From Oligoflexia bacterium (GTDB lineage: Bacteria; Bdellovibrionota; Bdellovibrionia; JABDDW01), in the NCBI GenBank assembly GCA_043732305.1, contig JAYTHU010000050.1:1-16309 (forward strand): a stretch of 16,309 nucleotides of DNA, read 5' to 3'. Made by a program: the position numbers and the translations under genes. Each line of letters starts with the position of its first letter. The first letter of the stretch is position 1. Below are positions 1,219-16,309 of the stretch, one piece after another. The notes beneath the pieces were generated by a model. It did no database searches. It saw nothing but the letters and a program-made list of their open reading frames with translations, and was not told the DNA's origin.

Positions 1219-1234
1219 GGGCACGCCCATTGCA
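1219..1234 (+). promoter_or_regulatory. Sigma-54 (RpoN) -24/-12 promoter
   Basis: GGGCACGCCCATTGCA versus consensus TGGCACG-N4-TTGCW. GG (1220-1221) and GC (1232-1233) are exactly 10 nt apart, and the element ends 35 nt before the ATG at 1270. Confidence 0.8.
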
Positions 1235-1269
1235 ATTAGGTATTTCAAACTAATACACGGGGTGGGAAA

Positions 1270-3813
1270 ATGCGTACAAATTTATTTGTAGTATTGCTAG
1301 TGGGATCTATTTGTTTAGGGGCGATTCAACCGGCAAATTCGGGAGAACTAACTCCGCACGATTTTAAAAAAATGTGCGGAGAATATCTCATGGATCTCGG
1401 AAGTGATTCGAAATCAAGTAAGAGTCAAAAACATGATTTGCGTACGGCTGCAATTGTCGAGGAACATCCGTTCAGTGTTCTCCTTGATCCAGAATTTGTG
1501 CGTGCGCATCCGCTCATGCTCATGAGTTCTGATCAAATGGCACTTGCCGCCATCAATATTGCTGGGGTTGAGGAAGTTCTTGATCCAATCACTGGTGCAA
1601 ATAAAGTGAAGCGATATAAGCTTTTCTCCGATGGTGGGGATCTCACCAGTGGTAGTCGAGTCGTTGGAGCTTTGGATACCATTCAAAGTTTAGTGAACGG
1701 ACTTGCCGCCGGGGCTTCTGGTCATGATTCCGGAAAGTCTTTGAAGATTGTCGTGGCAGGACCCGGAACTGGAAAATCAGTTCTTCTCACGACTATAAAC
1801 AATGCGCTTAAAAAATTGTCACTCACCGAACCTAAGATGTTTCAGTACACATTCGAAATGACCAACTTAGACAAAATCCCAGAGGTAAAAAATCTTTTTG
1901 ATCAAATTCGCGTGGAAGGATCTTCTACGCCAATGCGCTCTCAGATCAATGATTTTCCTTTCGCACTTTTGCCGGAATCTTTGCAGAAAGCATATGTCGA
2001 AAAGTTTACCCCCGAGGTGATTGCGCTTTGTGGATATCCTCCCATTGCAAAGTTTGAATCAGAAGGCCAAGCACGTCGTATTCGCGACATGATCATGATC
2101 CATTATTCTCGAACTGAAAATGCCGGAAAACCTCTTAGCATTGAGCAAGAACTCTACTATTTAAGTAAACACGTTGTGCTGAAACGTAATATTCCTGGCG
2201 ATGATGGCGGAAGTTTAATTCTGCCAGCGCAAGGAAAACAAATTGATACAACGGGATTATTCTTCAAGCAAAATCCACTAGCGATTGGACTTGAAGGTGC
2301 AAACGCTGTTTTTTCTTATGCAGCTACCGGGATTTTTCCAAGATCCAATAACCAAGTTTTCATCATGGATGAAGCTGGAAAATATCCCCCTGACTTGCAT
2401 GCTAAAATGCTCACGTTTACTCAAGACAAGACAATTCAAGAAGGTGGGTCTCCTACTCTATTTATCAATTCAACTTTGATTGCGGCAACCAACACCAAGG
2501 ACATTCAGCGATTGAAAGCGGAAGACCCTGACTCCGCTCTTTTGTCCCGCTCTTGGATGATCAATATGCCTTGGCACTTGGATCCAGTTCTGGAAGCAGA
2601 AACAATTGCTTACGGAATGAAAGATCTCATGATGCAAAAACTTGGAGATCCTAATGCTCCTATTTTGAAGGCTTCAGAACATTTGCAAGAACTTTTCCCT
2701 CATCACGTTTTTGGACATGAAGCGGTGACATCTGATGGAAGATATCGCCTTTGGGTTGGAAGTGGTGAGAGCCGTGTAGAAATCAGTCCAAAAGCTTTGT
2801 TGTTTGCGGGGGCTGTTCCTGCTCTGACTCGTCAGTTTTTCATCACTCAAGAGGAGCTAGAAGCTGAAAATAATCAAGTAGCAAAAAATTATCCATTCCT
2901 GACTAAGCCTTTGTTGAATGACCGAGTTGCTAGACTCCGCGCTTGGATCGGTCTCACGCCTGTCGATCAGCAAATTGCAATTTCTTACAAGCGTCTAAGT
3001 GCAAAGCACAAAGAAGGGTCCTTTGGTTTTGGCAACAGAGACTCCAGTCGCTGGTTTGAAGCGGCCATTGCGCGAGCAAGAATGCCCGGCGGTGGAAAAA
3101 GTGTGACCGTAGGCCTGCTTGATAAAACTCTCGGTGAAATCACAATCGATCATCCATTAACAGATATTGTTAAAGACGATGACGGAAAAGATCGGTATTC
3201 GAAAACTTTCTTGGTTGGAATGATTAAGCTTTCAGATTTGTTAAAAACTCAGGTCTTCATTCCGCAAATGAAGAAAGATGTGATGAGTGCAATTGTTCTC
3301 GATCAAGATGAATCCATCAAAGATATCTATCGGGACGTGATTCAAGCACTGGCTGCAAAAGGTGCAAACCCAAGTGCTCAAGAGTTTTCAGACGTTATTT
3401 CTGGAACAACTAAGCCTATCATTGAAGGACAGTTGACTGAGATTCGCGTGATCTATGCAGAACAAAATGGGGGACGCGGGCTTTCTGCTGAGGAAATAAA
3501 TAACTGGCATGTTATTTTTGGATTGAGCGAAAGAAACAACGGTTTTGCTATAGATCCCAAACATGCACTGAACCAGTCATTGCTTTCTGCCGTTGCTCAA
3601 TATCATGCAAATCAAATGGCTGCGGCGTGGGCTACAACTGTTGATCGGTTGCTCCGAGTGGCGACAGGAAAACAGACGGGCACCCCTGATGAAATTCAAA
3701 TGGCTACCGATATGATTCGCAAACTGAAACTCAATCTTGGTTATAGCGAGCAAAGCATAAAGGAAGTTCTCCAAGTCATGCTCGTGGACGCTAACACCAA
3801 ACGCGGAAAGTGA
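1270..3813 (+). CDS. prkA: Divergent PrkA/YeaG-family AAA+ ATPase (annotated as a serine protein kinase family), 847 aa, with N-terminal signal peptide
   Basis: Walker A AGPGTGKS (1756-1779), Walker B VFIMDE (2356-2373) and ALLSR arginine finger (R at 2548). PrkA-like blocks occur in family order: KRYKLF, FSY..G.F.RSN, LHAKMLTFTQD, LIAATN, INMPWHL...E, ISPKAL....ALTR, EGSFGFGNR, GYSEQSIKEVL. A SpoVR/YeaH gene lies in the same operon. Confidence 0.85.
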   Translation: MRTNLFVVLLVGSICLGAIQPANSGELTPHDFKKMCGEYLMDLGSDSKSSKSQKHDLRTAAIVEEHPFSVLLDPEFVRAHPLMLMSSDQMALAAINIAGVEEVLDPITGANKVKRYKLFSDGGDLTSGSRVVGALDTIQSLVNGLAAGASGHDSGKSLKIVVAGPGTGKSVLLTTINNALKKLSLTEPKMFQYTFEMTNLDKIPEVKNLFDQIRVEGSSTPMRSQINDFPFALLPESLQKAYVEKFTPEVIALCGYPPIAKFESEGQARRIRDMIMIHYSRTENAGKPLSIEQELYYLSKHVVLKRNIPGDDGGSLILPAQGKQIDTTGLFFKQNPLAIGLEGANAVFSYAATGIFPRSNNQVFIMDEAGKYPPDLHAKMLTFTQDKTIQEGGSPTLFINSTLIAATNTKDIQRLKAEDPDSALLSRSWMINMPWHLDPVLEAETIAYGMKDLMMQKLGDPNAPILKASEHLQELFPHHVFGHEAVTSDGRYRLWVGSGESRVEISPKALLFAGAVPALTRQFFITQEELEAENNQVAKNYPFLTKPLLNDRVARLRAWIGLTPVDQQIAISYKRLSAKHKEGSFGFGNRDSSRWFEAAIARARMPGGGKSVTVGLLDKTLGEITIDHPLTDIVKDDDGKDRYSKTFLVGMIKLSDLLKTQVFIPQMKKDVMSAIVLDQDESIKDIYRDVIQALAAKGANPSAQEFSDVISGTTKPIIEGQLTEIRVIYAEQNGGRGLSAEEINNWHVIFGLSERNNGFAIDPKHALNQSLLSAVAQYHANQMAAAWATTVDRLLRVATGKQTGTPDEIQMATDMIRKLKLNLGYSEQSIKEVLQVMLVDANTKRGK

Positions 3814-3830
3814 TCGGCAGGTAGTATAAA

Positions 3831-6800
3831 ATGCGATTGATTTTTTTAGTTTTTGCTCTTGTTTTTGTAATCACTGGCTCTGGACTGAATTCCGCTTGGG
3901 CAAATCGCGAAGAGACGAGTGGAAGTCCTTATCTGGTAGTCGTGGAAGATCAGCAAGGACAGTCAAGTCGCAAACCTGGAATTTATAAACGTGACAGCAC
4001 AGGCAAGTGGCTTCCTCTGATCATGGGAAAAGTCAGTTCCCTGAGTGCTGTTGGACAATATTACTTGCCTCTCGAAAATTTTAAAAAGAATCTCAGGTTC
4101 GATTCTCTGGCTATAGTTGACAGGCGAGTTCATATTTTTAATATCAACAGTGAAATGTCTGTTAGTAGTTCAATTCTAATCTTAGATGGCTCTAGTGGCC
4201 AAGGTCACATGCAGGTCCTTGACCCACTTACCTCTCAGAGTATTGAAGTTCCGCTTATCAATACCCCTCAAGAATTTGCATTCACAAGTGTTCCTCTGCA
4301 ATTTATTGTCAGCAAATTAGATAAAATTGGTGAAGTGCTTCTTTTGTCTATTCACAGCCCCCATTTACACGGAGATGGTGTGACCTTTCCGGTATTTTTA
4401 GGCGAGCATGAGACACCCTCGAGCGCTCCAAAGGTAGTAAATGCTTCTCATTTATTAGAAGGTAAATTTCGAGATGGAATCCAGTTGTCTCGACGCATTT
4501 TAGGAAGTGAGAAAAGCCGGACTCCCACTGGGTATTTGAGCCAGCAAGTCATCAACCAGTACGCTAGGGTGCTTCCTGGTGATGGACCAGAAATAGAGTC
4601 CTGGAGAAACAATGTCCATGCTAAGGGCGAAAATATCTTCAACTTACCTCCTTCTGAATATCGTGAATTGCCTCAAGTCAGCATATTCAACGGCGAAACT
4701 GTAACTCCTAAAATTCCCACACTCGTTCTTGCTAAGTATCCCGATGTTGAGATCAGATACATTTGGGACCCAAAGGGTCTTCTCTCTGGGGTTTACGTAG
4801 TTCCAAGCACCGGTGATACCAATTTTGGTTTTATCCTTAGTAACGTCGTTCAGCACAAATGCTTGTTTCTTGGAAATATTTCGCATGATTCTTTGGGCTT
4901 TTCTAAAAATGTCTATGCCGAAATCGGAATTTACTCGTTTACAGATGATGTAGGTGGAATTCATTTGATCCAGGCGCCTAGCAAATCTGAACCTGCGATC
5001 GTGAATTTGAAACCTCCTTCAGATCTTGAAGTGATCGAAAAAAGTTTTCATATTGATCGTGAAGATCAAAACATTATTGCTTCATGGGGATATAAAAACG
5101 GTTCCTCTAGCACATATCTTTACCATTACATTCTAAGTGTCCCAGAATCGTATATCAAGATCATTAGCATGACTGAGATATCTAGAAAATATTTCAACTA
5201 CGCCAATCTGCTTTTTCGCACGTCAAGGCACAACGGTAAGACCTATTTTGATACGGATACACCGGCCCTTGATACTAAAGCGACTTACGCCTTAGCTCAT
5301 GACTTGAGTTCATCTCATGTGGATTTAGAAGAAAGCGCTAAACATAATACCTTGATATTAAAGTCCTTGCGCGCCACAAAACAAACGGTCTTACTTGAAA
5401 GCTTAAAATATCTTGAATACCAAAATGTTAAATCTAGCATCACTATGAGTGGGATTTATGAAGCCAGTGACGAAAAACAGTTGGTTAGCACACAGGTTCT
5501 GGAACCAATTCATATTCCTCTCTACATTCCTGGAACTTTTGTTTTGCAAAAGAAAAGAATCGTTCTTCTGAAGCAAAATATTCCGACTTCCATAGACATG
5601 GCGATTGTTCTTTCTGACGCCTCTCGAATGAATGGACAGAGTAATTTTCAAGCGAATCTCCTTCTGGCGAGTAAAGGTAAAGTTTTTTTGGCAAAACTCG
5701 CGACCATCGATTATCCTCTGGCATCTTTAGAAGATATAGAGATCCACGTCCCCTTCTTTAATAACGCCACCTCCGACCAAATGCTCGCTTACGTAAAAAT
5801 TAAAGATCAGGGTGTATTCCCCATTCCCTTCACGGTCTCGAAAGATGAATCTTTAGAAGCTAGATTCACTCAGACTATTTTAAATAGAGATTCCTTCAAG
5901 TTGTTTTCTGGCCAATCAATAGCTTCCAAAGCAAATATTTTATCTCGATTGAGATATGATAAGAACGGTGCGATTTATTGGGTGCTTACTGGCGAAGTCT
6001 CCGATTCTGAACCAGGCTTTACGATCAGAAATTTAATTACAGGCGAAACTGTCAATCATCACAACATGAAAATTTCTTTGTTTCAAGCAGGCAAGCCTGT
6101 GGAATCAAACACTGGAGCTTCATCCTGGCGCTACTATGTTCCTGATTTAAAAGATCCGGTTGGTTCCAGTCAGAGATACAAAACTGATTTGTTTTCCAAT
6201 TTTAAAAATCTTCTTGAGGACATGGCTGATCCCCGAAAACCACCGCAACGTGTGGTTATGATTGTGCCCGAAGATATCAAGCAATATGCAGCAAGTTACC
6301 CGCTAGCGCTTTATTTAAAGCATCATGATCGAAGTGCGCAATGGAGCCGAGACAGTTCCGGCATGAAGCTTTTTGTTCCTCGTGATAACTATTTTTCGCA
6401 AGAGGATGTTCTGCAAAATTTCTCAGTGATGGAGCAGAATGAAATTGCCGGCAGGTCTCGTTCTTTTTTCTACGGTGTCCTTTCGCATTTTTCACAAAAA
6501 GCAAAGCCTGAGCCGAAGAATCCGGAAGATGAAAAAACATTTACTATTCTAGAGCCCAAACTCTCGGAAAATATGTTTGACGAGGCTTCTGCCGATGGAA
6601 AAGTAGTCACCGATAATTCTGATAAAGTAAACCCTCACTTTTTGTATCTGCTTGTGACGGAAGGTCATCATGTGCCTATAGAAAAATTTGTGGCGCAGAA
6701 ATGGGATCATCCCAAAATTTCATCTCTCATCATTGCTACAAAAGAAGAGTGGGACGCCTATATAACCAAAGAGTCTTTTGAAGATAAGCTTAACCTTAAA

Positions 6801-9245
6801 CAATATTTCCGTGTAGAGACTCTTCAAGCACCCACAATTCCAGTTCGTGAACAGTATGTGAAAGAATTATTGGCTCGAAAAGAGATTCAAGCTTTTGGGT
6901 ACCATATTGATGTTTCCGACATAACCAATAAAGTCATTGCAGATCAAGACCAAGCGCGTGAAGTTTTGGCGAGATACTTTGTAAAACGTGCAGACACTTT
7001 AGCTGAAGAAAATCAGGAACCGTCTTTTGAAGGTTTTGTAAAAGCTGTCGGAATTCTCACTAAAGAATTACAAAAGAACACTGCTTTGAGAGCGTCGCTT
7101 AAAATCGACCGCGCAGTGATTCAGCAGTTGTTGTCCAAAGGTTTCACCATGACCCTGAACCCAGATCTTCTGGGACCTGATGATTTTCATAAAAAATTAG
7201 CCGATCCTCAAGCCGCTTGGAAATGGCAACAAAAAGGTTACGCCGGTCCGATTAAATTTAAAGAACAGATGATCAATATCATGCGCGGACAATTAAATCC
7301 GAGTAGCACACAAAATGTGGCTAGTACTTTTATATTGAATGGTGAATCTGGGACTGGGAAAACGCAGGCCATTAGGAGCTTCTTTGTAGATTTCTTGGGT
7401 CTCAAAGAATACAACATCAAGGCTCGAGATTTCACCTTAGGAGACGGCCGGACGGCAAATGCGGAAGCAGGTATTTTCATTCTGCATTGTCCTAGTATCG
7501 CAGATCCAAATATTCAGAGAATTCCAACCACGAATAAAAGTTCAACCATCATTTTAGATGAAGCTTTGCGGCATATTGATTTGTTTTTCACATCCGTTCA
7601 CGGTCAGCGCGGTGTTTTAATTCTAGATGACATTCATGATGCCAACAATTCCGTAAAGGAAGCGCTGCTGAAACGCGTTCGTTCTATTTTAGATCAAAAG
7701 ACAATCGAAGCTGTTTCTGCCGAAGGTGGGGAGCTCGTGACTGTTCCCACTCGTAATATCACGATTGGACTCACCATGAACTTCAAGCCAGATAAAGACA
7801 TGATTAAAAAAGTAGCTAAAAACGAGGTCAGTCCCACTAGGGATGAGTTGATTTTAGCAACGCTTTCCACACCTCACGCGATCTTGGACGATTCCTTTTT
7901 AAAGCGAATCACAGCCATTGTTCCCATGGACATTCATCCTAAAGATGCCAAGGGTCCGCAACTGACGCTTGAACTTGCAAATGTAGCTCGCCGTGGTTTT
8001 TTGAACAATCAAGTTCTGACTTTTGTGAGTCAGGATGTGATCACTACTTTAGTCGACAAATTTCCAACTACTGATGTGCGTACCTTTATGGATCCCGCAG
8101 AGAAAAATCTTTTGCAAACCAGCAGAAGCACGGGAAATCTATTTGTTACAGTTTCGAAAATCTCCCCTCACCAAACGTCTTCGAGTGGGGATGGACCAAG
8201 AGAAAAAATTGCCCATTACATTAAAGACAATACAGAAAAAGTTTCTATAGAAAATACCTTACGCGGAAAAATAGAGTTCATGCGTTACATGATTGATGGT
8301 TCAAGAAAAGTAATTTTTGAATCGATTTTAAAAAGCTTAAACGAAAACCCTGCCTACGCTGCTGGACCAGTGAACCAAAAAAATCTTGGAGCACCTGCAG
8401 CTAAAGCCATTCATGACCATTTATTGACGATTCCTTCTTTGCCGATTGAAGAGATGAATCTCAACCCTTCGCTGCTTCAGGTCAATAGTTTCCATGAGAA
8501 GAATCAATTTCGCTCGATTTTAAAATCAATCATTGAATCCCAGCGAGCGACAATGGGTTTTTCGATTCCACACATGGGTGCTTTTATTTCAGATGGATTA
8601 TTGGGAGATTCGAATTGGGATTCTGAGGATGATGGAATGTCACAGCGCACGCGTTTGAAGGTCGCTCAAGAGACCATGGAAAAAATCAAACCTGTTACTG
8701 TAAAAGTGATGGCGGAGATGTTGCGAGTTAAGTCTTTGGAAAAATATCCAGAACCAGAGAAATGGATAGAAAGTCTCAATAAATCGGATCCTGCATTTTT
8801 GATGAGAGACGCTGGAACCGCAATGACCGAGGCCCTTTCGGAATATATTATTGAGATGTATGGGGCGATGGTTAAAGAAAACCATGCAGAAAGTTTAAAT
8901 CCCGGCATTCCAAAAATGTCTACTTACGATAGTGTTCGGATATTTGCCTTAGCTGTCGACAAGGTTCTCGCGCAAATGCCTTGGGAAAACATGACGAGCT
9001 TCATGATTAAAAATCTCAACTTTGCTGTCGATAATTTGGACATGGGTCACGCCTCTGCACTTCAGTATCTTTTGTTTGAAAGTAAATTTTCTCTTCTCAA
9101 TGGAAAACATTTGAGCTTGGTTACAGGTCATGCGCAAGTCATGCCTTTCATTGAACAGCAAGAATCAGTGGAGAGAACATTGCACAAAAGATTTACAACT
9201 CACTGTGATGTCATTCTCTCAGGTCTTTCCCGAGGTAGCTTATGA
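3831..9245 (+). CDS. Giant (1804 aa) signal-peptide protein with an unknown N-terminal region and a ClpA/ClpB-like AAA+ C-terminal half
   Basis: Signal peptide MRLIFLVFALVFVITGSGLNSAWA. FILNGESGTGKT P-loop (GESGTGKT at 7341-7364). GVLILDDIHDANNSVKEALL, TVPTRNITIGLTMN and DSFLKRITAIVPM resemble the Clp NBD2 motifs [34 protein letters not shown] and PEFLNRIDEVVVF. Starts 17 nt after the prkA stop. Confidence 0.75.
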   Translation: MRLIFLVFALVFVITGSGLNSAWANREETSGSPYLVVVEDQQGQSSRKPGIYKRDSTGKWLPLIMGKVSSLSAVGQYYLPLENFKKNLRFDSLAIVDRRVHIFNINSEMSVSSSILILDGSSGQGHMQVLDPLTSQSIEVPLINTPQEFAFTSVPLQFIVSKLDKIGEVLLLSIHSPHLHGDGVTFPVFLGEHETPSSAPKVVNASHLLEGKFRDGIQLSRRILGSEKSRTPTGYLSQQVINQYARVLPGDGPEIESWRNNVHAKGENIFNLPPSEYRELPQVSIFNGETVTPKIPTLVLAKYPDVEIRYIWDPKGLLSGVYVVPSTGDTNFGFILSNVVQHKCLFLGNISHDSLGFSKNVYAEIGIYSFTDDVGGIHLIQAPSKSEPAIVNLKPPSDLEVIEKSFHIDREDQNIIASWGYKNGSSSTYLYHYILSVPESYIKIISMTEISRKYFNYANLLFRTSRHNGKTYFDTDTPALDTKATYALAHDLSSSHVDLEESAKHNTLILKSLRATKQTVLLESLKYLEYQNVKSSITMSGIYEASDEKQLVSTQVLEPIHIPLYIPGTFVLQKKRIVLLKQNIPTSIDMAIVLSDASRMNGQSNFQANLLLASKGKVFLAKLATIDYPLASLEDIEIHVPFFNNATSDQMLAYVKIKDQGVFPIPFTVSKDESLEARFTQTILNRDSFKLFSGQSIASKANILSRLRYDKNGAIYWVLTGEVSDSEPGFTIRNLITGETVNHHNMKISLFQAGKPVESNTGASSWRYYVPDLKDPVGSSQRYKTDLFSNFKNLLEDMADPRKPPQRVVMIVPEDIKQYAASYPLALYLKHHDRSAQWSRDSSGMKLFVPRDNYFSQEDVLQNFSVMEQNEIAGRSRSFFYGVLSHFSQKAKPEPKNPEDEKTFTILEPKLSENMFDEASADGKVVTDNSDKVNPHFLYLLVTEGHHVPIEKFVAQKWDHPKISSLIIATKEEWDAYITKESFEDKLNLKQYFRVETLQAPTIPVREQYVKELLARKEIQAFGYHIDVSDITNKVIADQDQAREVLARYFVKRADTLAEENQEPSFEGFVKAVGILTKELQKNTALRASLKIDRAVIQQLLSKGFTMTLNPDLLGPDDFHKKLADPQAAWKWQQKGYAGPIKFKEQMINIMRGQLNPSSTQNVASTFILNGESGTGKTQAIRSFFVDFLGLKEYNIKARDFTLGDGRTANAEAGIFILHCPSIADPNIQRIPTTNKSSTIILDEALRHIDLFFTSVHGQRGVLILDDIHDANNSVKEALLKRVRSILDQKTIEAVSAEGGELVTVPTRNITIGLTMNFKPDKDMIKKVAKNEVSPTRDELILATLSTPHAILDDSFLKRITAIVPMDIHPKDAKGPQLTLELANVARRGFLNNQVLTFVSQDVITTLVDKFPTTDVRTFMDPAEKNLLQTSRSTGNLFVTVSKISPHQTSSSGDGPREKIAHYIKDNTEKVSIENTLRGKIEFMRYMIDGSRKVIFESILKSLNENPAYAAGPVNQKNLGAPAAKAIHDHLLTIPSLPIEEMNLNPSLLQVNSFHEKNQFRSILKSIIESQRATMGFSIPHMGAFISDGLLGDSNWDSEDDGMSQRTRLKVAQETMEKIKPVTVKVMAEMLRVKSLEKYPEPEKWIESLNKSDPAFLMRDAGTAMTEALSEYIIEMYGAMVKENHAESLNPGIPKMSTYDSVRIFALAVDKVLAQMPWENMTSFMIKNLNFAVDNLDMGHASALQYLLFESKFSLLNGKHLSLVTGHAQVMPFIEQQESVERTLHKRFTTHCDVILSGLSRGSL

Positions 9246-12200
9246 AAAAATTATTGTTAATAATTATGCTTCTTTTAGGTTCAATTCTTCACGCTGAAGA
9301 AGATCAAGGCGCATATTTAGGAAACAAATGCGCGCGCGTCCTCGGGTGCCTTGGCAGTTGCGGGGGACATCCAAAGATTATTCAAATTGCAAGCGGCGAA
9401 GACACCGATACTTTTCAGCAGAGTGTTGCCGACGCAAAAATCATTTACGGTATTTCTAATAAGCTTAATTATTTCATACCCGACAATATCATTCGTCACG
9501 CTACCGGTATTGAGATGGCGGCTGTCGCAAGTGTAGGTGGGCATCCAGCACCGGTTTGGTCATCTGGAGCAAAACTTGTCGCAGGAGTTGGCGGCACCAT
9601 GGGAGTTTACGAAGTTGTTTTTCCCGGCCGAAGTTTTCATGATCAGTACATTCGCTCGGGGAATTCTGTTCATGACAATAGAACTGTATTTCCTCATGTT
9701 GCTGGTCACTATCATTTTGCGGTCAAGCATCCAGTTTCTCGCATAAGAGATTTGGATCAGATCGGTGACACCGAAAAATTAGCGGAATACATGAGTGAGA
9801 TAAAACTTAAAGTGAATGAGAGTGAATATTCTGATTGGTATCACCGTTTAGAAACTCTCTCTTATTTGCAAGATCTATCTCGCGGTTCTTATTACCCTCC
9901 ATCACATTTTGAACCAAGTAAGACGACTGAATTTTCCACTGAGAGTTCGGAGGATAAGGTAAATCCTTTGTCTCCTACTAGTTCAGTTATGCAGGCGTTG
10001 GTGGCAAATTTACCCGCTACTACCCCAGGCTGGAAAGTGAACATGGCGCAACTTTACGAGAAAACTGTAAAGATTATTGGCTCCTACACACAAACCAAAG
10101 TGATGAACGAAGGCTTTGCTGTTTTATCCCAATACTTACATCTGAAGCATGCGCCTGCCGATTGGCGAACGAGTGCTGATGCTGCTGAATTCGCGCAAAT
10201 CAATTCTGGGGTAGTATTCCCAAAGTTGAATAATCCCTACTGGCTTGGAGTTGAAGCTTGGAGAATTCACTACGCTCAATTTAAAAATAAAATGGCATCA
10301 CTAAATCTTTCAGATTTAGATTTGGACGCTCGTTTCGTGACTGAAATCGTAGATCCTATTTTAGAGTCAGGTTACAACGATTACACTTTTGTGCGTGCAA
10401 CCTTTAACGAAAAATGGGTAGAGAAACATAAATTATTTCTCTATAAATCAGAAATTCAAGGGCATGAAGAAGTTAAGATTGTGGTAACCCAAGACCCCCA
10501 ACGCATTGTGAATTCGTTTTCTCAGATGTTTAATAAAGACATTCACTTTGCTCGTATTGAACTTGTGAATCTCAATGAAAATAGAACTGGAACGGTGCTG
10601 CTGAGACACACGCCTGCGTATGGCATTCCCTTGAAATTAAGTTCCATGGCTCCAGCGCTTTATCAAGTGGCAAGATTCATGAAAGCTCCCATAAAATTAG
10701 AAACCATTTGGACAGCTATGTGGTTTCAAAGCAAAGGCAATTCCAAAGCGAGTCCTCAGGAGACGGGGCCGATGTCTGTTCAAGTGGATGCTTCTGGAAA
10801 AGTTCAGCTGAATTTATTTAGTGAAAAAATTCCCCCTGAAGTTCAAAAATCTCTGAGAGATTTTTTTCAGAGTTCTGTCGACGAATTTAAAAAAGACTTG
10901 ACCCTCTCTTATGGTAGTCAGCCTCTGCCTTTAGATGTGGCATCAATGAAAGCCGGCTCAGATCACGAAGCTCCCATCACTGGTGTGGACAGTTCGCTCC
11001 TTGGACATATGCCCACGACCACGCCCGCTATTTTAGAATTTATTAAGATGCGCGATCGAAGATTTCTGATTGCAGCTAAAGCCGCAATACGTGGCGAAAC
11101 CAAAAATGCTTTTAGCGCTAGCGGTGTTGTCGTAAAAGTTCTTCCAGACACTCCTATGCTCGAAAACGACACTCGCATTATTGGTGTCAGAAAAAGTTTT
11201 CGACAAAATAATCTTGGTCCGGCATCGATGATGACTCACTTTGGTGGAACCATGGCGCAGACGATCCCCGATGAAGATATGGATATTTCAGCAGGTGACA
11301 AATTGCCTGGCGATATCTTAGATCGCAAACCCGCTGGTGGTGGCGGCGGGAGTGGGCCGGGAGATGGTAATGGAGACGCGGATAAAGAGAGCGGCAAAGG
11401 TGCCAGCGGTGGTGAAGCCGATCCTCAGATGGAAGAAATTCCACAAGGTCTATATGGAAAAATGCTCGCCGAAGATATTGAAATTAGAAATCTGCGGCGC
11501 ACTTCGCAGAAGGACATCGACACTAAATCTTTTATTAAAGAAGGCGATGTTCGCAGGGCAAGCAATGATGTGAACTGGCCCAAAACTTCTGCTTCCGCTT
11601 ATGAAATGGGCTTGGTCATGCAGAAGCGTGAGAACATGAAACTTCCTGAAGGTCAGAAAAAGAAACGAACAAATCTTGAGCTGATCAGGTTCGGTTATAA
11701 ATTTCTGCCACAAAATCAATACACATCGCCTTCGCTCGATATTCAATTCGAGCCAAGTTATAGTGTCGTATTGATGGTGCTGGCCGATGTGTCTGGCAGT
11801 ATGAGCAAAGAGCATAAAGAAGCTATGAGGCGCGCAATATACAATGAAGTGGCTGCGCTCGAGGCGGCTCATAAAAAAGTCACAGTTCGATATTATCATT
11901 ACAGCCAAGGTGCTAAAGAAGTTTCTGTTAAAGAGTTTTATACTAAGTCAGAAGGGTCTTCAACGGACACCGCTGCCGGCATTACACTGGTAGCATCAGA
12001 TTTAGAAAAGGACCATCCGCGAGATAAAATCAATCGGGTTGTCAGTATTTTCTCTGATGGTGACGATAGTACTCCTGATGCATCTGCAGCATTGGGCGCA
12101 GCCCTTGCGGAGAAGGTTGATTTTCTGACGTATGCCAACATTGATCCAGAGGGCAAAAAAGTGGGCCCACTTTCTGAATCCTTTGAAGCCCTGAGCAAAC

Positions 12201-12292
12201 GTTCACCAGACAAAGTGGGATATGCTAACATCAGCGCCGATCCTGCGACTGTCTATCGCGCAATCAAGAATTGGTTTGGAAAACGTAACTAA
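9242..12292 (+). CDS. SpoVR(YcgB)-YeaH(YhbH/DUF444, vWA) fusion protein, 1016 aa, with signal peptide
   Basis: SpoVR motifs: YEVV, HVAGHYHF (9695-9718), QTKVMNEGFA (10091-10120), NPYWLG (10232-10249), YNDYTFV. YeaH motifs: RDRRFL, GDILDRKPAGGGGGSG, LAEDIEIRNL, DVSGSM MIDAS (11786-11803), AKEV..KEFY..SEG..T, SDGDD (12053-12067). ATGA overlap with the upstream stop and a GAGGT RBS (9232-9236). Confidence 0.85.
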   Translation: MKKLLLIIMLLLGSILHAEEDQGAYLGNKCARVLGCLGSCGGHPKIIQIASGEDTDTFQQSVADAKIIYGISNKLNYFIPDNIIRHATGIEMAAVASVGGHPAPVWSSGAKLVAGVGGTMGVYEVVFPGRSFHDQYIRSGNSVHDNRTVFPHVAGHYHFAVKHPVSRIRDLDQIGDTEKLAEYMSEIKLKVNESEYSDWYHRLETLSYLQDLSRGSYYPPSHFEPSKTTEFSTESSEDKVNPLSPTSSVMQALVANLPATTPGWKVNMAQLYEKTVKIIGSYTQTKVMNEGFAVLSQYLHLKHAPADWRTSADAAEFAQINSGVVFPKLNNPYWLGVEAWRIHYAQFKNKMASLNLSDLDLDARFVTEIVDPILESGYNDYTFVRATFNEKWVEKHKLFLYKSEIQGHEEVKIVVTQDPQRIVNSFSQMFNKDIHFARIELVNLNENRTGTVLLRHTPAYGIPLKLSSMAPALYQVARFMKAPIKLETIWTAMWFQSKGNSKASPQETGPMSVQVDASGKVQLNLFSEKIPPEVQKSLRDFFQSSVDEFKKDLTLSYGSQPLPLDVASMKAGSDHEAPITGVDSSLLGHMPTTTPAILEFIKMRDRRFLIAAKAAIRGETKNAFSASGVVVKVLPDTPMLENDTRIIGVRKSFRQNNLGPASMMTHFGGTMAQTIPDEDMDISAGDKLPGDILDRKPAGGGGGSGPGDGNGDADKESGKGASGGEADPQMEEIPQGLYGKMLAEDIEIRNLRRTSQKDIDTKSFIKEGDVRRASNDVNWPKTSASAYEMGLVMQKRENMKLPEGQKKKRTNLELIRFGYKFLPQNQYTSPSLDIQFEPSYSVVLMVLADVSGSMSKEHKEAMRRAIYNEVAALEAAHKKVTVRYYHYSQGAKEVSVKEFYTKSEGSSTDTAAGITLVASDLEKDHPRDKINRVVSIFSDGDDSTPDASAALGAALAEKVDFLTYANIDPEGKKVGPLSESFEALSKRSPDKVGYANISADPATVYRAIKNWFGKRN

Positions 12293-12324
12293 TCGAGCGA
12301 AGCTTAGTCTAAATAAATATTGTT

Positions 12325-12364
12325 AAGAAAAAGAAAGCCCCGCTTTTCAGCAGGGCTTTTTTTT
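12325..12364. terminator. Bidirectional rho-independent terminator between convergent genes
   Basis: A-rich tract, AAAGCCCCGCT-TTTC-AGCAGGGCTTT hairpin, then a T8 run. Lies between the stop at 12292 (+) and the stop at 12390 (-). Confidence 0.9.
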
Positions 12365-12389: not shown

Positions 12390-12971
12390 TTAGTGTTTTG
12401 CGCCGAGGTAATTCTTCACGCCTTCGGGAGTGGCTTTCATTGTTGAGCTGCCTTTTTTCCAGTTTGCGGGACAGACTTCGCCAGTTTTAGCAGAAGTTTG
12501 AAAAGCTTCAACCACGCGTAGAATTTCTTCCACGTTGCGGCCTACGCCTAAGTTATGAACAGTGATGTAATCGATTTTTCCTTCGGGATTGATCAAGAAA
12601 AGTCCGCGAAGGGCGATTCCAGCAGGGAGCAAAACTCCGTAGTCGCGCGCTACATCTTTGGTTAAATCGGCAAGTAAGGGGTATCGTAATTTTCCAATGC
12701 CACCATCTTTGGGTGCGGTGTTCATCCATGCGCGGTGAGTGTGTTCGCTATCGACTGAACAGCCAACAACTTCAGCGCCGAGAGCTTTGAACTTATCCAA
12801 ATTTTCGTCGAATGCGAGAATTTCTGTCGGACACACGAAAGTGAAATCCAAGGGATAGAAAAATAGAACCAGCCATTTGCCTTTGTAATCGTTGAGCGAA
12901 ATTTCTTTTACTTCGCCAGCGATAACGGCTTTGCCTTTAAAAAACGGTGCAGGTTGTTGTACTTGTGCCAT
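12390..12971 (-). CDS. ahpC: Typical 2-Cys peroxiredoxin (AhpC/Prx1 family)
   Basis: FFYPLDFTFVCPTE (peroxidatic Cys), GRNVEEILR and GEVCPANW (resolving Cys). AAGGAG RBS upstream. Confidence 0.95.
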   Translation of the reverse strand: MAQVQQPAPFFKGKAVIAGEVKEISLNDYKGKWLVLFFYPLDFTFVCPTEILAFDENLDKFKALGAEVVGCSVDSEHTHRAWMNTAPKDGGIGKLRYPLLADLTKDVARDYGVLLPAGIALRGLFLINPEGKIDYITVHNLGVGRNVEEILRVVEAFQTSAKTGEVCPANWKKGSSTMKATPEGVKNYLGAKH

Positions 12972-13009
12972 GAAATGGGGCTCCTTCTTAAAGTTAATTT
13001 GAGGTTAAT

Positions 13010-14422
13010 CTATGCCAGATCTGGCCTTGAGAGCAATCTGTCTTTTCTGTCGTTTAGACTGTTTGCCGATCGGTTGGCCAGCCGAATCCAATAAGCAAAA
13101 AGTGTGGATGCTACAATTGCCAATCCCAAGGCTAGGCCTGTCCATAGACCTTTGAGACCCCAATTTTCTTTGAAGCAAAGCCATGCTCCTATGGGAAGGC
13201 CAAAAATCCAGAAGGCAATGAGATTTGCAACAGCTGGAATTCTTGTTTCTCCGAGTCCTCGCATCGCTCCGGTGCAAATGACTTGAATGCCATCTGCCAC
13301 TTGAAATATCGCGGCTAAGATAATGATTTTAGAAGCCAATTTTATGACGTCAAGATCAGTGGTGAAAATTCCAATAATATGAGAGCCCCATGTTGAAAGT
13401 AAGATTCCTGAGCAAACCATAAAACAGAAAGACAAAATAAAGGCTGCATAGCCTGCTTGGAAACTTCGTTCAGAATCTTTTTCGCCCAAATAATAAGCCA
13501 CCCGAATTGCCGCGGCCATGGAAATTCCCAGTGGGATCATAAATGTGAAGCTCGCGATATTCAGAACGATAGAATGAGCTGCTAAGCTGACTGCCCCAAG
13601 TTTTGAGGCAAGGCCAGTGGAGAGCGAGAATACACCGACTTCGAAAAGCATCTGCAAAGCAGCTGGAGTTCCAAGCAAGAAAAGTTTTTTAAAGTAACTA
13701 TAGTCTATCCTCCAAGAGTGGTGACTGGGCGCTTTGTTTTTTCCTGAGAATGAAAAATAAATCAAGGCCACCGTCATGAGAACTCGATTGATCAAAGTGG
13801 ACAGCGCCGAACCCGGAATTCCCATTTCTGGAAAACCAAATTTTCCATTTATAAAAACCCAGTTCATCCCCAAATTAGAAATATTGGCGGTAACCATCAC
13901 CCATGTCACCCATTTGGAATATCCTGTGGCTTGGAGATATTGTCTGAGGGCGATGAACATCAAGAATGGAGTGAGCGACAAATTATAAATCTGAAGAAAT
14001 GATCTTGTTCCTACGGCAATAATGTTGGGGACGCCAAACATTGTTAGATGATCTGCGATGTAATAATTCAGTATCGTGAGTGGCACGCTTATGATGATTG
14101 CCATGTAGAAACCTTGGAGCTTCCAACGATGGGCTTCTTCAAGATTCCCGCTCCCCAAGTTAGATGCGATAAAAAAATCTAATCCAGAAAGTAGGCCTAA
14201 AGAAAATATTGAAAATATAAAAAATATCGAAGTGCCTAGGGTGACACTCCCTATGGCTACCGCACTAATTTTCCCCACCATGAATGAATCCACTAGTCCC
14301 ATGAGCATCTGCCCAGCTTGCGTAATAATAATTGGGACCGCTAGCACCATCATTGGTTTAATTTGTTCTTTTACCGTTTTCACTTTTTTGCTTTCAATAA
14401 AAATTTTAAAGGCACCAATCAC
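13010..14422 (-). CDS. MATE family multidrug efflux transporter (NorM-like)
   Basis: About 12 hydrophobic segments and the motifs LAVPIIITQ...MGLVDSFMVG, LGTPAALQMLFEVGVF, LAAHSI and FQVADGIQV...GAMRG. GTG start with a GAGGG RBS. Confidence 0.93.
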   Translation of the reverse strand: MIGAFKIFIESKKVKTVKEQIKPMMVLAVPIIITQAGQMLMGLVDSFMVGKISAVAIGSVTLGTSIFFIFSIFSLGLLSGLDFFIASNLGSGNLEEAHRWKLQGFYMAIIISVPLTILNYYIADHLTMFGVPNIIAVGTRSFLQIYNLSLTPFLMFIALRQYLQATGYSKWVTWVMVTANISNLGMNWVFINGKFGFPEMGIPGSALSTLINRVLMTVALIYFSFSGKNKAPSHHSWRIDYSYFKKLFLLGTPAALQMLFEVGVFSLSTGLASKLGAVSLAAHSIVLNIASFTFMIPLGISMAAAIRVAYYLGEKDSERSFQAGYAAFILSFCFMVCSGILLSTWGSHIIGIFTTDLDVIKLASKIIILAAIFQVADGIQVICTGAMRGLGETRIPAVANLIAFWIFGLPIGAWLCFKENWGLKGLWTGLALGLAIVASTLFAYWIRLANRSANSLNDRKDRLLSRPDLA

Positions 14423-14451
14423 TTTCCCTCACTCGTCGACACATCGGCTCG

Positions 14452-15105
14452 CTAGCCACTAGCAAATGCGGGATACTTTCTGTTTGTTCCTTTAAAGCGG
14501 CTATTTCTATTTTTATATGGAACAAGTCCCCAAGCCTCTAAAATATTTTTATCAATGTATTGGCAAAGCGATTTAAATTCATTTCCCCATTCTACAATTC
14601 GGGTGAATGGTCGCTTGTCCCAAAAATCTGCTCCAGCTGTTTTAATAACTACGGGCTTCTCAAAAATCTCCCCATTTGCCTGACCTGGATTGTTCCCGCT
14701 AGCATCTTCAATGTTTTTCTTATCGGTCGAGGCGGTTTTCCCGCGTTCGATTCCTAACATTTCTCTTGCGACCAGGCCAGAAATGGAACGAATAAATTTA
14801 TTGAATGCCACCCGCGAACTAGGAAGCACAATGAGATGGAAGTGGTTGCCTGTATTAGCAAATCTGTAAATTTTAACGCCACTTTGTTTTGCCTGCTTAA
14901 AGAACAGTTCTTTGAGTTTCTTTTCTTTTTTCAGAAATGAAATTTGCCCTTTTGCTTTTAAGGATCTCATCACTAAGTGCATAGCTCTTTTGGTTGCAAT
15001 CGGACGCTTGACCTTTGCATGGCTATTCTTCAGATAGGCCCCTCCAAAAACTTTGGGCGCTTTATTGTTAAATTCTTCGATTTTAAACTGCTTTTGTCGA
15101 GGCAT
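14452..15105 (-). CDS. Y1/HUH tyrosine transposase-like protein (IS200/RAYT superfamily)
   Basis: NHFHLIV HUH motif (HFH at 14836-14844), an upstream H-L-V-M-R strand, FWDKRPFTRIV and the catalytic-Tyr helix YIDKN (Tyr 14557-14559). GGAG RBS at 15112-15115. No IS ends identified. Confidence 0.8.
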   Translation of the reverse strand: MPRQKQFKIEEFNNKAPKVFGGAYLKNSHAKVKRPIATKRAMHLVMRSLKAKGQISFLKKEKKLKELFFKQAKQSGVKIYRFANTGNHFHLIVLPSSRVAFNKFIRSISGLVAREMLGIERGKTASTDKKNIEDASGNNPGQANGEIFEKPVVIKTAGADFWDKRPFTRIVEWGNEFKSLCQYIDKNILEAWGLVPYKNRNSRFKGTNRKYPAFASG

Positions 15106-15490
15106 TTAGCACTCCAGGTGGACTAATCATGACGTCGTTGGCATTACATAAAATGAATTTACCATCTTTGGTAGCGATGTCAATTTGATACATTTATTGC
15201 TAATTTTATTAGCGCGATGAATTGTCTTTTTTTGCGCGAGGATGGAAGGTTATTGAACGGAAATTTATATGTGAATTGAGCTCGACGGATCTGGGCTTGG
15301 TGTTTGCTTACCGCAAAGCAAAGGGGTGCTAAAAAATTAACTTTGGAAGTAAGGCAATGTGCAGAATAAAATTGATACTCGGTTTTGGCACAAGAGGCGA
15401 TTTAATCCGTATAGAATCGATCCCGTTGGAACCAAACTCGTGCCGGATCTCATCCACGCAAAAAATCTTTATCTTAGCGATGAGGACCTT

Positions 15491-16024
15491 TTAAACTTTT
15501 AGGATTCTGCCTAAGGTGCACATGATTACGCCCAAGCTAAGGGTAAAGCTCATAAAGATTGCGAGTCTCATCCACTGGCCAACGGATTGTAGAAACTGAT
15601 AGTCGAGGAAATCTGGACCGAACATATTGGAGCCTAGCCAGCAAAGAAAACCTAAAACAAAAGTGTAGAAAAGCATTCGGCCAAAGGCGTTGGCTTTTGT
15701 CATTTTGCCAACCATGAACCCACACAGAGAGGCGCAGGCGAAATGCACAATGGCTCCAACTAAGAACACGGAGGTTGGAGCAGAGAGAAGGAAAGCTTTT
15801 CCTCCAAAAACGGCAGAAGCCGTAAGCTGCAACCACCACAGTTTTCCAGCGGTTTCAACTTGGAATAAACTCGAAACAAAAATCATAACCACGCCGGCTA
15901 ATAGTCCGGAGAAAATCCCTACGCCCACTCGCTTGAGACTAGGATGCAAGAAAGAATCAAGAAGCACAGTTCCTTGACCATTGTCATCATTAGCTGCCAT
16001 TGCGTTAGTTGCGTCAGTAGACAT
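15491..16024 (-). CDS. Small integral membrane protein, about 177 aa, 4-5 TM segments, function unknown
   Basis: Start moved from 16141 to ATG 16024 because AGGAG (16036-16032) precedes it and the longer ORF would overlap the divergent gene. Hydrophobic helices include GIFSGLLAGVVM, VGAIVHFACASLCG and FVLGFLCW. Confidence 0.75.
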   Translation of the reverse strand: MSTDATNAMAANDDNGQGTVLLDSFLHPSLKRVGVGIFSGLLAGVVMIFVSSLFQVETAGKLWWLQLTASAVFGGKAFLLSAPTSVFLVGAIVHFACASLCGFMVGKMTKANAFGRMLFYTFVLGFLCWLGSNMFGPDFLDYQFLQSVGQWMRLAIFMSFTLSLGVIMCTLGRILKV

Positions 16025-16089
16025 TTTTTCACTCCTGTTTTGTCGAAATTTAAATAGATAGTAAAGGTTCCGTCCATTAAGATCAAGGT

Positions 16090-16309
16090 ATGAATTCAGC
16101 AAAAATAACGCAAAGTGAGCAAGCCAAAATAGGTGCGGCAATAAACACCAAATTCACCGATCTCATGGGCTGTGAATATCCTATCATTGCAGGCCCAATG
16201 TTTTTGGTAAGCAATGTTCAGTTGGTTACCGAGGTTTCTAATGCGGGAGGGGTCGGTGGCGTTCCTACTTTAAATTGGAGAACCACTGTCGCTTTCGATG
16301 CTGCTATGG
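16090..16309 (+). CDS. 5' end of a nitronate monooxygenase / FabK-like FMN oxidoreductase (partial, runs off the right edge; not in the ORF track)
   Basis: Reads MNSAKITQSEQAKIGAAINTKFTDLMGCEYPIIAGPMFLVSNVQLVTEVSNAGGVGGVPTLNWRT. The T.F...G..YPII..PM and VSNAGG.G motifs mark the family. The exact start codon is uncertain. Confidence 0.85.
   Translation, partial: MNSAKITQSEQAKIGAAINTKFTDLMGCEYPIIAGPMFLVSNVQLVTEVSNAGGVGGVPTLNWRTTVAFDAAM

Follow-up and report, generated by a model that had tools for sequence, protein, structure and literature searches.

The closest described relative of the system considered here is the bacterial module formed by PrkA/YeaG (SpdA), YeaH/YhbH and YcgB/SpoVR (PF08298, PF04285 and PF04293). 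According to the accessible part of PMC13684143 (PNAS 2026), Escherichia coli YeaG (SpdA) is needed in starvation for cytoplasmic proteins to be degraded on a wide scale and largely without specificity. PrkA of Bacillus subtilis is reported, in the portion available of PMC9512850, as an ATP-dependent protease, and pure PrkA of Bacillus anthracis alone had no protease activity in the accessible text of PMC13001217, a result that would allow a partner chain to supply the peptidase. Here, we describe a three-gene operon (open reading frames [ORFs] ORF1, ORF2 and ORF3; Table 1) on a 16,309-nt contig (JAYTHU010000050.1, C50; hereafter, the window) of the 2.99-Mb, 98% complete genome of an Oligoflexia bacterium (GCA_043732305.1, G000; class Bdellovibrionia, phylum Bdellovibrionota). 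The operon is real and conserved, and its parts descend from the known module. We propose, with a probability of roughly 45%, that it encodes a diverged, fast-evolving second PrkA-SpoVR-YeaH copy that is delivered into prey cytoplasm, where it degrades prey proteins with prey ATP.

ORF1 and ORF3 are homologous to the canonical module over their full lengths and retain its Walker A/B, metal ion-dependent adhesion site (MIDAS) and SpoVR His/Glu motifs. Unlike in that module, each chain of the operon carries a predicted signal peptide and a cysteine motif (hence exported, as predicted, in what follows), SpoVR is fused before YeaH, a Clp-fold gene is added, and the set stands as a second copy in the genome. 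The periplasm is held to lack ATP, and no bacterial ATP-dependent machine of several subunits is known to us to be exported by Sec, nor was one found in the literature searched. Among eukaryotes, Clp-fold ATPases that are exported or lumenal, namely the Plasmodium PTEX HSP101 and the torsins, reside in ATP-containing compartments; PTEX HSP101 is an actively threading motor that has a pore as its partner, whereas the exported operon holds no pore gene. Neither an exported form of the module nor the cysteine motif was found in the literature searched, which included few subscription papers, and the accessible part of PMC11656739 makes no mention of PrkA, SpoVR or signal peptides.

Domain composition of the three chains

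The domain identities put forward in a first-pass annotation of the window, PrkA for ORF1 and SpoVR plus YeaH for ORF3, held in profile alignments of probability 100. ORF1 matched Pfam AAA_PrkA (E 1.1e-7, 31.7 bits against a cut-off of 25) and aligned with canonical PrkA in hhalign over 597 columns (residues 65-780). A single-sequence search with ORF1 returned only itself, and profile searches were needed to reach the family; a profile search of the PDB matched 9xip (PrkA; E 2.8e-31), the profile then containing one unrelated tagged row (L058:14447-16867, DUF6829) that was dropped from the later hidden Markov model and alignment. The ATPase motifs of ORF1 are intact. Specifically, besides the Walker motifs, sensor-1 N408 and arginine finger R427 were each present in 43/43 homologues. 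Because these catalytic residues were kept in 42-43 of 43 homologues, despite identities of 20-37%, ORF1 should still use ATP.

ORF3 comprises a SpoVR domain (aa 56-494), a linker region of ~180 residues and a YeaH/DUF444 domain (aa 679-1015) with a von Willebrand factor A (vWA) fold. Pfam recognized both parts (SpoVR, E 1e-11, 44.5 bits against 27; DUF444, E 1.5e-18), while the protein scored far below the equivalog cut-offs of NCBIfam (YhbH, 62 vs 468 bits; SpoVR, 33.9 vs 679 bits). Its structure model (predicted local distance difference test [pLDDT] 79, predicted template modelling score 0.75) ends in a vWA fold whose longest structural alignments were to NorD and the Rea1 MIDAS domain. 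The hallmark of YeaH/DUF444, a Gly-rich segment followed by a vWA domain with an intact MIDAS, is present, with D849, S853 and D939 each found in 55/55 homologues. Peptide patterns taken from ORF3 retrieved no relative from the genome contigs searched.

The SpoVR domain shows the YE, H-x-x-G-H, NEG and NPY motifs, and E124, H152, H156 and E290 were each conserved in 55/55 homologues. In canonical SpoVR, YE, H-x-x-[AG]-H and NEG occurred in 49-50 of 50 sequences, including the copy in the source genome (C164:24952-26481) and L188-L239. From these patterns, we infer that the His/Glu set is a zinc peptidase site and that, in the universal YeaG module, the metallopeptidase role may fall to SpoVR/YcgB. 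PDB sequence searches for the SpoVR domain gave nothing significant, and an Atlas search with ORF3 residues 44-560 gave no usable match. In many ORF3 homologues (L046, L043, L032), a C-P-T-C pair directly follows the invariant SpoVR Glu; it is absent in the window.

The first-pass annotation had read ORF2 as a Clp-like partner, of which the fold survives, whereas its sequence does not suggest a working unfoldase. Pfam-type evidence was limited to weak AAA matches. A model of residues 775-1804 (pLDDT 82) contains two tandem AAA+ modules and matches ClpA/ClpC, so that the protein appears as ~750 N-terminal residues unrelated to Clp, a Clp-fold core and a helical C-terminal domain of ~300 residues; an Atlas search with residues 25-780 gave no usable match. 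In common with class I Clp/Hsp100 proteins (ClpA, ClpB, ClpC), modelled ORF2 thus has the tandem AAA+ modules, but it differs in lacking the D1 Walker A, the GYVG loop and the IGF/L loop, in its DD Walker B, and in its unrelated 750-residue N-terminus, 300-residue helical tail and predicted signal peptide. Among 21 homologues, the D1 Walker A was found in none, the D2 aromatic pore loop in two and the IGF/L ClpP-docking loop in none, and the D2 Walker B was DD in 92, DE in 3 and unparsed in 5 of 100 representatives with a Walker A. Because of these losses and the DD Walker B, ORF2 is Clp-like by fold and, on its motifs, neither a Clp member nor a working unfoldase. It is also an optional subunit: among the 42 loci in which ORF1 and ORF3 are both full, it was full in 38, absent in 3 and in two pieces in 1. 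The ORF2 family comprises 186 clusters at E<=1e-30, and 109 of its 150 listed representatives are full-length.

Export signals and a terminal cysteine motif

The basic N-terminus, hydrophobic core and small-residue site (ANS, AWA or LHA) first noticed on each of the three ORFs are present, and they proved to be a family trait. Signal peptides were called by a home-made n-h-c heuristic rather than by SignalP; the heuristic is prone to false positives where a protein starts with a Rossmann fold. In a non-redundant set of full-length homologues, it called 32/43 for ORF1, 35/40 for ORF2 and 49/55 for ORF3, and a hydrophobic core lay within the first 80 residues in 42/43, 39/40 and 54/55, respectively; the inspected misses were mostly early start calls. 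By comparison, the heuristic called none of the canonical controls (PrkA 0/31, SpoVR 0/50, YeaH 0/36; 0/117 in total). Among the 109 full-length ORF2 representatives, 86 passed the heuristic and 97 had the hydrophobic core. In the window, no membrane segment was found beyond residue 40 (19-residue Kyte-Doolittle maxima of 1.32, 1.23 and 1.14 for ORF1-3), and none of the three N-termini bears a twin-arginine motif. Sec export of all three chains to the producer's periplasm is thus predicted.

The first-pass annotation had missed a C-x3-L motif near one terminus of all three chains. Its Cys stands at mature position +12 in ORF1 and ORF3 and 13 residues from the C-terminus in ORF2, and a Leu occupied +4 in 81/114. 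Of the 109 full-length ORF2 representatives, 97 carry the motif solely at the C-terminus and 7 solely at the N-terminus; 0 have it at both ends and 5 at neither. To judge from these patterns, it behaves as a portable tag. Lipoboxes and MYXO-CTERM are cysteine-containing sorting signals, and the motif resembles both in placing a conserved near-terminal Cys on unrelated exported proteins. It differs from the lipobox in that its Cys lies 5-30 residues past the cleavage site, not at +1; it also lacks the membrane helix and basic tail of MYXO-CTERM, and it can stand at either end.

Across the source genome, 65/586 soluble signal-peptide proteins had C-x3-[LFM] within their first 45 mature residues, vs 66/2587 internal windows, and 29/586 had it within their last 25 residues, vs 61/4903 internal windows. 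Pfam matches were obtained for 17 of 53 tagged proteins, the 53 being picked by eye from 93. Tagged signal-peptide proteins include ATP-grasp, ABC1 kinase, SelO, DnaJ, adenosine deaminase and two C1B peptidases, with L/F-tRNA transferase and methyltransferase domains below cut-off. In a control of 76 signal-peptide-like proteins from 400 kb of the same genome (70 untagged), the matches were mostly to envelope families, and most of the cytoplasmic enzymes among them begin at residues 1-17 and are false calls of the heuristic. In a 400-kb sample of this genome chosen away from known tagged loci, the tag was found in 2/85 (N-terminal) and 4/85 (C-terminal); in 400 kb of an operon-free genus genome (G024), where the proteins with the tag were mostly multi-Cys, it was found in 8/103 and 5/103, against backgrounds of 22/455 and 21/866.

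Further signal-bearing P-loop ATPases occur in the source genome at C31:36832-39783, C62:32457-35108, C188:319-1869 and C31:77479-78639 (L241-L243). Two are Clp-like, one is MoxR-like beside a tagged 938-aa protein and one is a small AAA protein, and the cysteine motif lies at or near a terminus. Unrelated orphan genes that carry both signal peptide and motif also occurred in runs (L065, C31:24488-34830 of the source genome; L067; L056:65-3992), and 18 of the 93 tagged genes had a tagged neighbour within 1.5 kb.

Distribution and ancestry of the exported set

Fused ORF3 was found in 40 of the 390 class genomes searched and ORF1 in 41, with 38 genomes in both lists; in a sample of the phylum, the operon was present in 39/401 genomes, 28 of them outside the class. 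Its frequency is thus ~10% of the class and phylum genomes searched. When one genome per species was scanned, all of the 27 strongest loci came from metagenome-assembled genomes (MAGs), and the other 52 were canonical genes, mostly of Bacillota. The expectation of Bdellovibrionota-type carriers agrees with the labels of these 27 named MAG records, which mostly read Bdellovibrionales, Pseudobdellovibrionaceae, Bacteriovoracaceae, Oligoflexales or Deltaproteobacteria, with a few others. Gene order ORF1-ORF2-ORF3 was the rule among the loci compared (31 from the class and 20 of the phylum matches).

The check for a normal cytoplasmic set, also raised in the first-pass annotation, was positive: the source genome encodes canonical PrkA (C91) and YeaH-SpoVR (C164) without signal peptides, and most carriers examined keep such a set beside the exported one. 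Further, 55 exported SpoVR parts formed one clade (support 0.96, long stem) that is ~4x deeper than the seven canonical SpoVR of the class. The retention of the canonical set, together with this depth, is the pattern expected of a retooled copy.

Several carriers depart from this arrangement. In G298, a 1.6-Mb single contig that is 93% complete, the exported set has all three genes but is split between two places (L058:2208-12259 and L240:6598-9066); its ORF1 has the signal and the tag, and canonical SpoVR was not found in that genome. One genome carries a tandem ORF3 duplicate (L166:5948-11536), and four others have the fused gene twice, at separate places (G329, G330, G408 and G429).

A proposed route into prey and its alternatives

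Given both an export signal and conserved ATPase residues, ORF1 must meet ATP outside the producer's cytoplasm. For a predator, the simplest such site is likely to be the prey cytoplasm, and the bulk proteolysis of the parent module is likely what a predator needs there. In the parts of the sources available, the epibiotic predator B. exovorus is described as breaking down the cytoplasmic protein of its prey in situ, by way of a fixed junction (10.1101/2023.10.25.563945), and the Oligoflexales are said to include predators of algae (PMC12865303).

In the mechanism we propose, Sec would export the three chains into the predator's periplasm, and the cysteine motif would serve as a sorting or carrier-attachment tag that routes them, along with other cargo, onward through an apparatus. 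In the prey cytoplasm, ORF1 would form an ATP-driven ring, and the vWA/MIDAS of YeaH would couple that ring to substrate, by analogy with NorQ-NorD. The SpoVR part would act as a zinc peptidase, the ORF3 fusion would keep SpoVR and YeaH together after export, and ORF2, rather than unfolding proteins, would serve where present as a nucleotide-binding scaffold or as an aid to delivery. The MoxR pairs (NorQ-NorD, CbbQ-CbbO) and the Rea1 MIDAS likewise join an AAA+ ATPase to a MIDAS vWA domain after an acidic Gly-rich linker; in the exported operon, unlike in these, the ATPase is PrkA-type, the vWA domain is fused to SpoVR and export is predicted. A bolder extension, which we regard as doubtful, is that much of the Bdellovibrionota uses a two-step secretion, in which Sec acts first and a portable C-x3-L helix then loads cargo for prey cytoplasm; this cargo would include a weaponised PrkA-SpoVR-YeaH protease, with SpoVR as the metallopeptidase, that forces a starvation-type self-digestion on prey ATP.

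Several observations weigh against delivery of a protease into prey. First, the predatory setting is assumed, as no cultured organism occurs among the 27 named carriers, and the largest genus of the class had the operon in 0/44 genomes. No delivery apparatus was found; a TrbI/VirB10 gene was rejected as a candidate, as it sits in a conjugative-element-like cluster (L140:11891-18690, contig C113 of the source genome) with TrbI/VirB10-like and FtsK-like genes. Prey already possess YeaG, and digesting them with ATP-independent proteases would cost less. Second, the ORF1 pore loop is degenerate (L-E-G in the window protein): its aromatic, mostly lost in contrast to canonical PrkA, was present in 16/42 homologues vs YG in 26/32 canonical sequences, a poor fit with strong non-specific threading. 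Third, the SpoVR part has no canonical HExxH (H-V-x-G-H instead, with Glu at 124 and 290), and its fold was matched to no peptidase, the fold lists for whole ORF3 being filled by vWA matches. YeaH and YcgB are unnamed in the main text of PMC13684143, as far as that text was available, so their role in proteolysis is our own reading. Finally, the tag is neither specific nor universal. C-x3-[LFM] also occurred in 111/1383 (N-terminal) and 41/1383 (C-terminal) ORFs of the source genome without a called signal peptide, which makes the loose pattern alone weak; the N-tagged ORF2 forms lie in one clade, so that the end swap amounts to one or two events; and a four-locus clade (L167, L175, L178 and L180; one member labelled Oligoflexales) keeps its signal peptides while the motif is lost together from the chains seen, a partial exception being the ORF3 of L175, which retains a Cys.

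Two alternatives, both of which accept export, have to be weighed against delivery of a protease. One holds that the machine stays in the predator's periplasm or feeding junction and runs on leaked or imported prey ATP, with the cysteine motif as a tether (a disulfide or acyl link) and the degradation of incoming prey protein, or envelope quality control, as its job. We consider this unlikely, as none of the three chains has a membrane anchor, tagged cargo includes domains with cytoplasmic partners (DnaJ and, weakly, L/F-tRNA transferase), and B. exovorus takes in no intact prey mCherry, according to the accessible part of 10.1101/2023.10.25.563945. The other holds that the chains are delivered to act as a MoxR-like remodelling chaperone for one client, such as SpoVR metal loading or the disabling of a host complex or of the host YeaG module, rather than as a bulk protease. 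The best-supported function of the parent module, in the available text of PMC13684143, is non-specific proteolysis, which speaks against such a chaperone. The degenerate ORF1 pore loop favours remodelling and the invariant His-His-Glu-Glu set of ORF3 homologues disfavours it, leaving a dedicated chaperone improbable on balance.

Very unlikely, last, is that the N-termini are uncleaved anchors or lie upstream of the true starts, leaving the producer with an additional or substitute PrkA module that works in its cytoplasm: in its favour are the reliance of the signal calls on the heuristic, the internal Met of ORF1 at 35, 41 and 83, and the signal-bearing set of G298, where canonical SpoVR was not found, and opposed to it are the n-region, core and A-x-A-like site kept phylum-wide on three unrelated folds whose letters there are not conserved, an ORF2 M1 invariant in 21 homologues, the signal and tag retained by the ORF1 of G298, the canonical set kept by most carriers examined, and a basic N-terminus that, by the established positive-inside rule, predicts a mature part outside.

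Operon layout and flanking genes

As first described, the three genes are tightly coupled, with a 17-nt gap between ORF1 and ORF2 and an ATGA overlap between ORF2 and ORF3, and their conservation rules out an ORF artefact. The single terminator described after the operon was also recovered, as a hairpin with T-runs on both strands that the operon has in common with a convergent peroxiredoxin gene. The single sigma-54 promoter fared less well. A sigma-54-like site is present, at a match frequency near chance expectation for the window (mean 0.56; 91/200 shuffles). Upstream of homologues, it was found in 0/42 by a strict and 2/42 by a loose match, and sigma-54 control was, therefore, rejected as a conserved feature of the operon. 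The site is plausibly real in the source genome, where sigma-54-like sites lay within 150 nt of 9/93 Cys-tagged vs 14/493 untagged signal-peptide genes (Fisher p 0.005), hinting at a shared sigma-54 regulon of tagged genes.

Outside the operon, the window encodes an outer-membrane beta-barrel (138-899, + strand) with its own terminator (939-962). On the minus strand, positions 12390-16141 encode the peroxiredoxin, a MATE exporter, a Y1/IS200-like transposase-fold protein (14452-15105) and a hydrophobic protein of 216 aa that matched no Pfam family.

Table 1. Coordinates of operon features in the window, with conservation among homologues where available
Feature	Position	Strand	Remarks
Sigma-54-like -24/-12 site	1219..1234	+	GGGCAC-N5-TTGCA, 1 mismatch, 36 nt 5' of ORF1 ATG
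ORF1	1270..3813	+	PrkA/YeaG-like AAA+ ATPase, 847 aa, predicted exported
ORF1 predicted Sec signal peptide	1270..1341	+	To ANS; heuristic and family conservation
ORF1 N-terminal cysteine motif C36-G-E-Y-L	1375..1389	+	Cys in 40/43, motif in 38/43 homologues
ORF1 Walker A (K169)	1756..1779	+	K in 43/43 homologues
ORF1 Walker B D367-E368	2368-2373	+	E in 42/43 homologues
ORF2	3831..9245	+	1804 aa, Clp-fold double AAA+ core, optional subunit
ORF2 predicted Sec signal peptide	3831..3902	+	To AWA; heuristic
ORF2 D2 Walker A GESGTGKT	7341..7364	+	G, K invariant in 21 homologues
ORF2 D2 Walker B DD	7626-7631	+	D, D invariant in 21 homologues
ORF2 C-terminal cysteine motif C1792-D-V-I-L	9204..9218	+	Last helix in model; 35/40 homologues
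ORF3	9242..12292	+	SpoVR-YeaH(vWA) fusion, 1016 aa, predicted exported
ORF3 predicted Sec signal peptide	9242..9295	+	To LHA; heuristic
ORF3 N-terminal cysteine motif C30-A-R-V-L	9329..9343	+	Cys in 52/55, motif in 47/55 homologues
ORF3 H152-x-x-G-H156	9695..9709	+	With E124, E290, putative zinc site of SpoVR domain
ORF3 MIDAS D849-x-S-x-S853	11786..11800	+	vWA domain, with T908, D939
Bidirectional intrinsic terminator	12334..12364		Hairpin 12334-12359, T-runs on both strands

Implications

If the three chains are exported, either large proteins are delivered into the cytoplasm of another cell by a new route or ATP is available outside the producer's own cytoplasm, and both would be surprising. 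The operon makes two questions testable, namely by what means a predator breaks down prey cytoplasm in situ and which member of the universal YeaG-YeaH-YcgB module is the one that cleaves protein. For the latter, the natural SpoVR-YeaH fusion offers a two-chain version for reconstitution, with the invariant His/Glu residues pointing to SpoVR. The cysteine motif provides a handle for listing the effector repertoire of uncultured predators.

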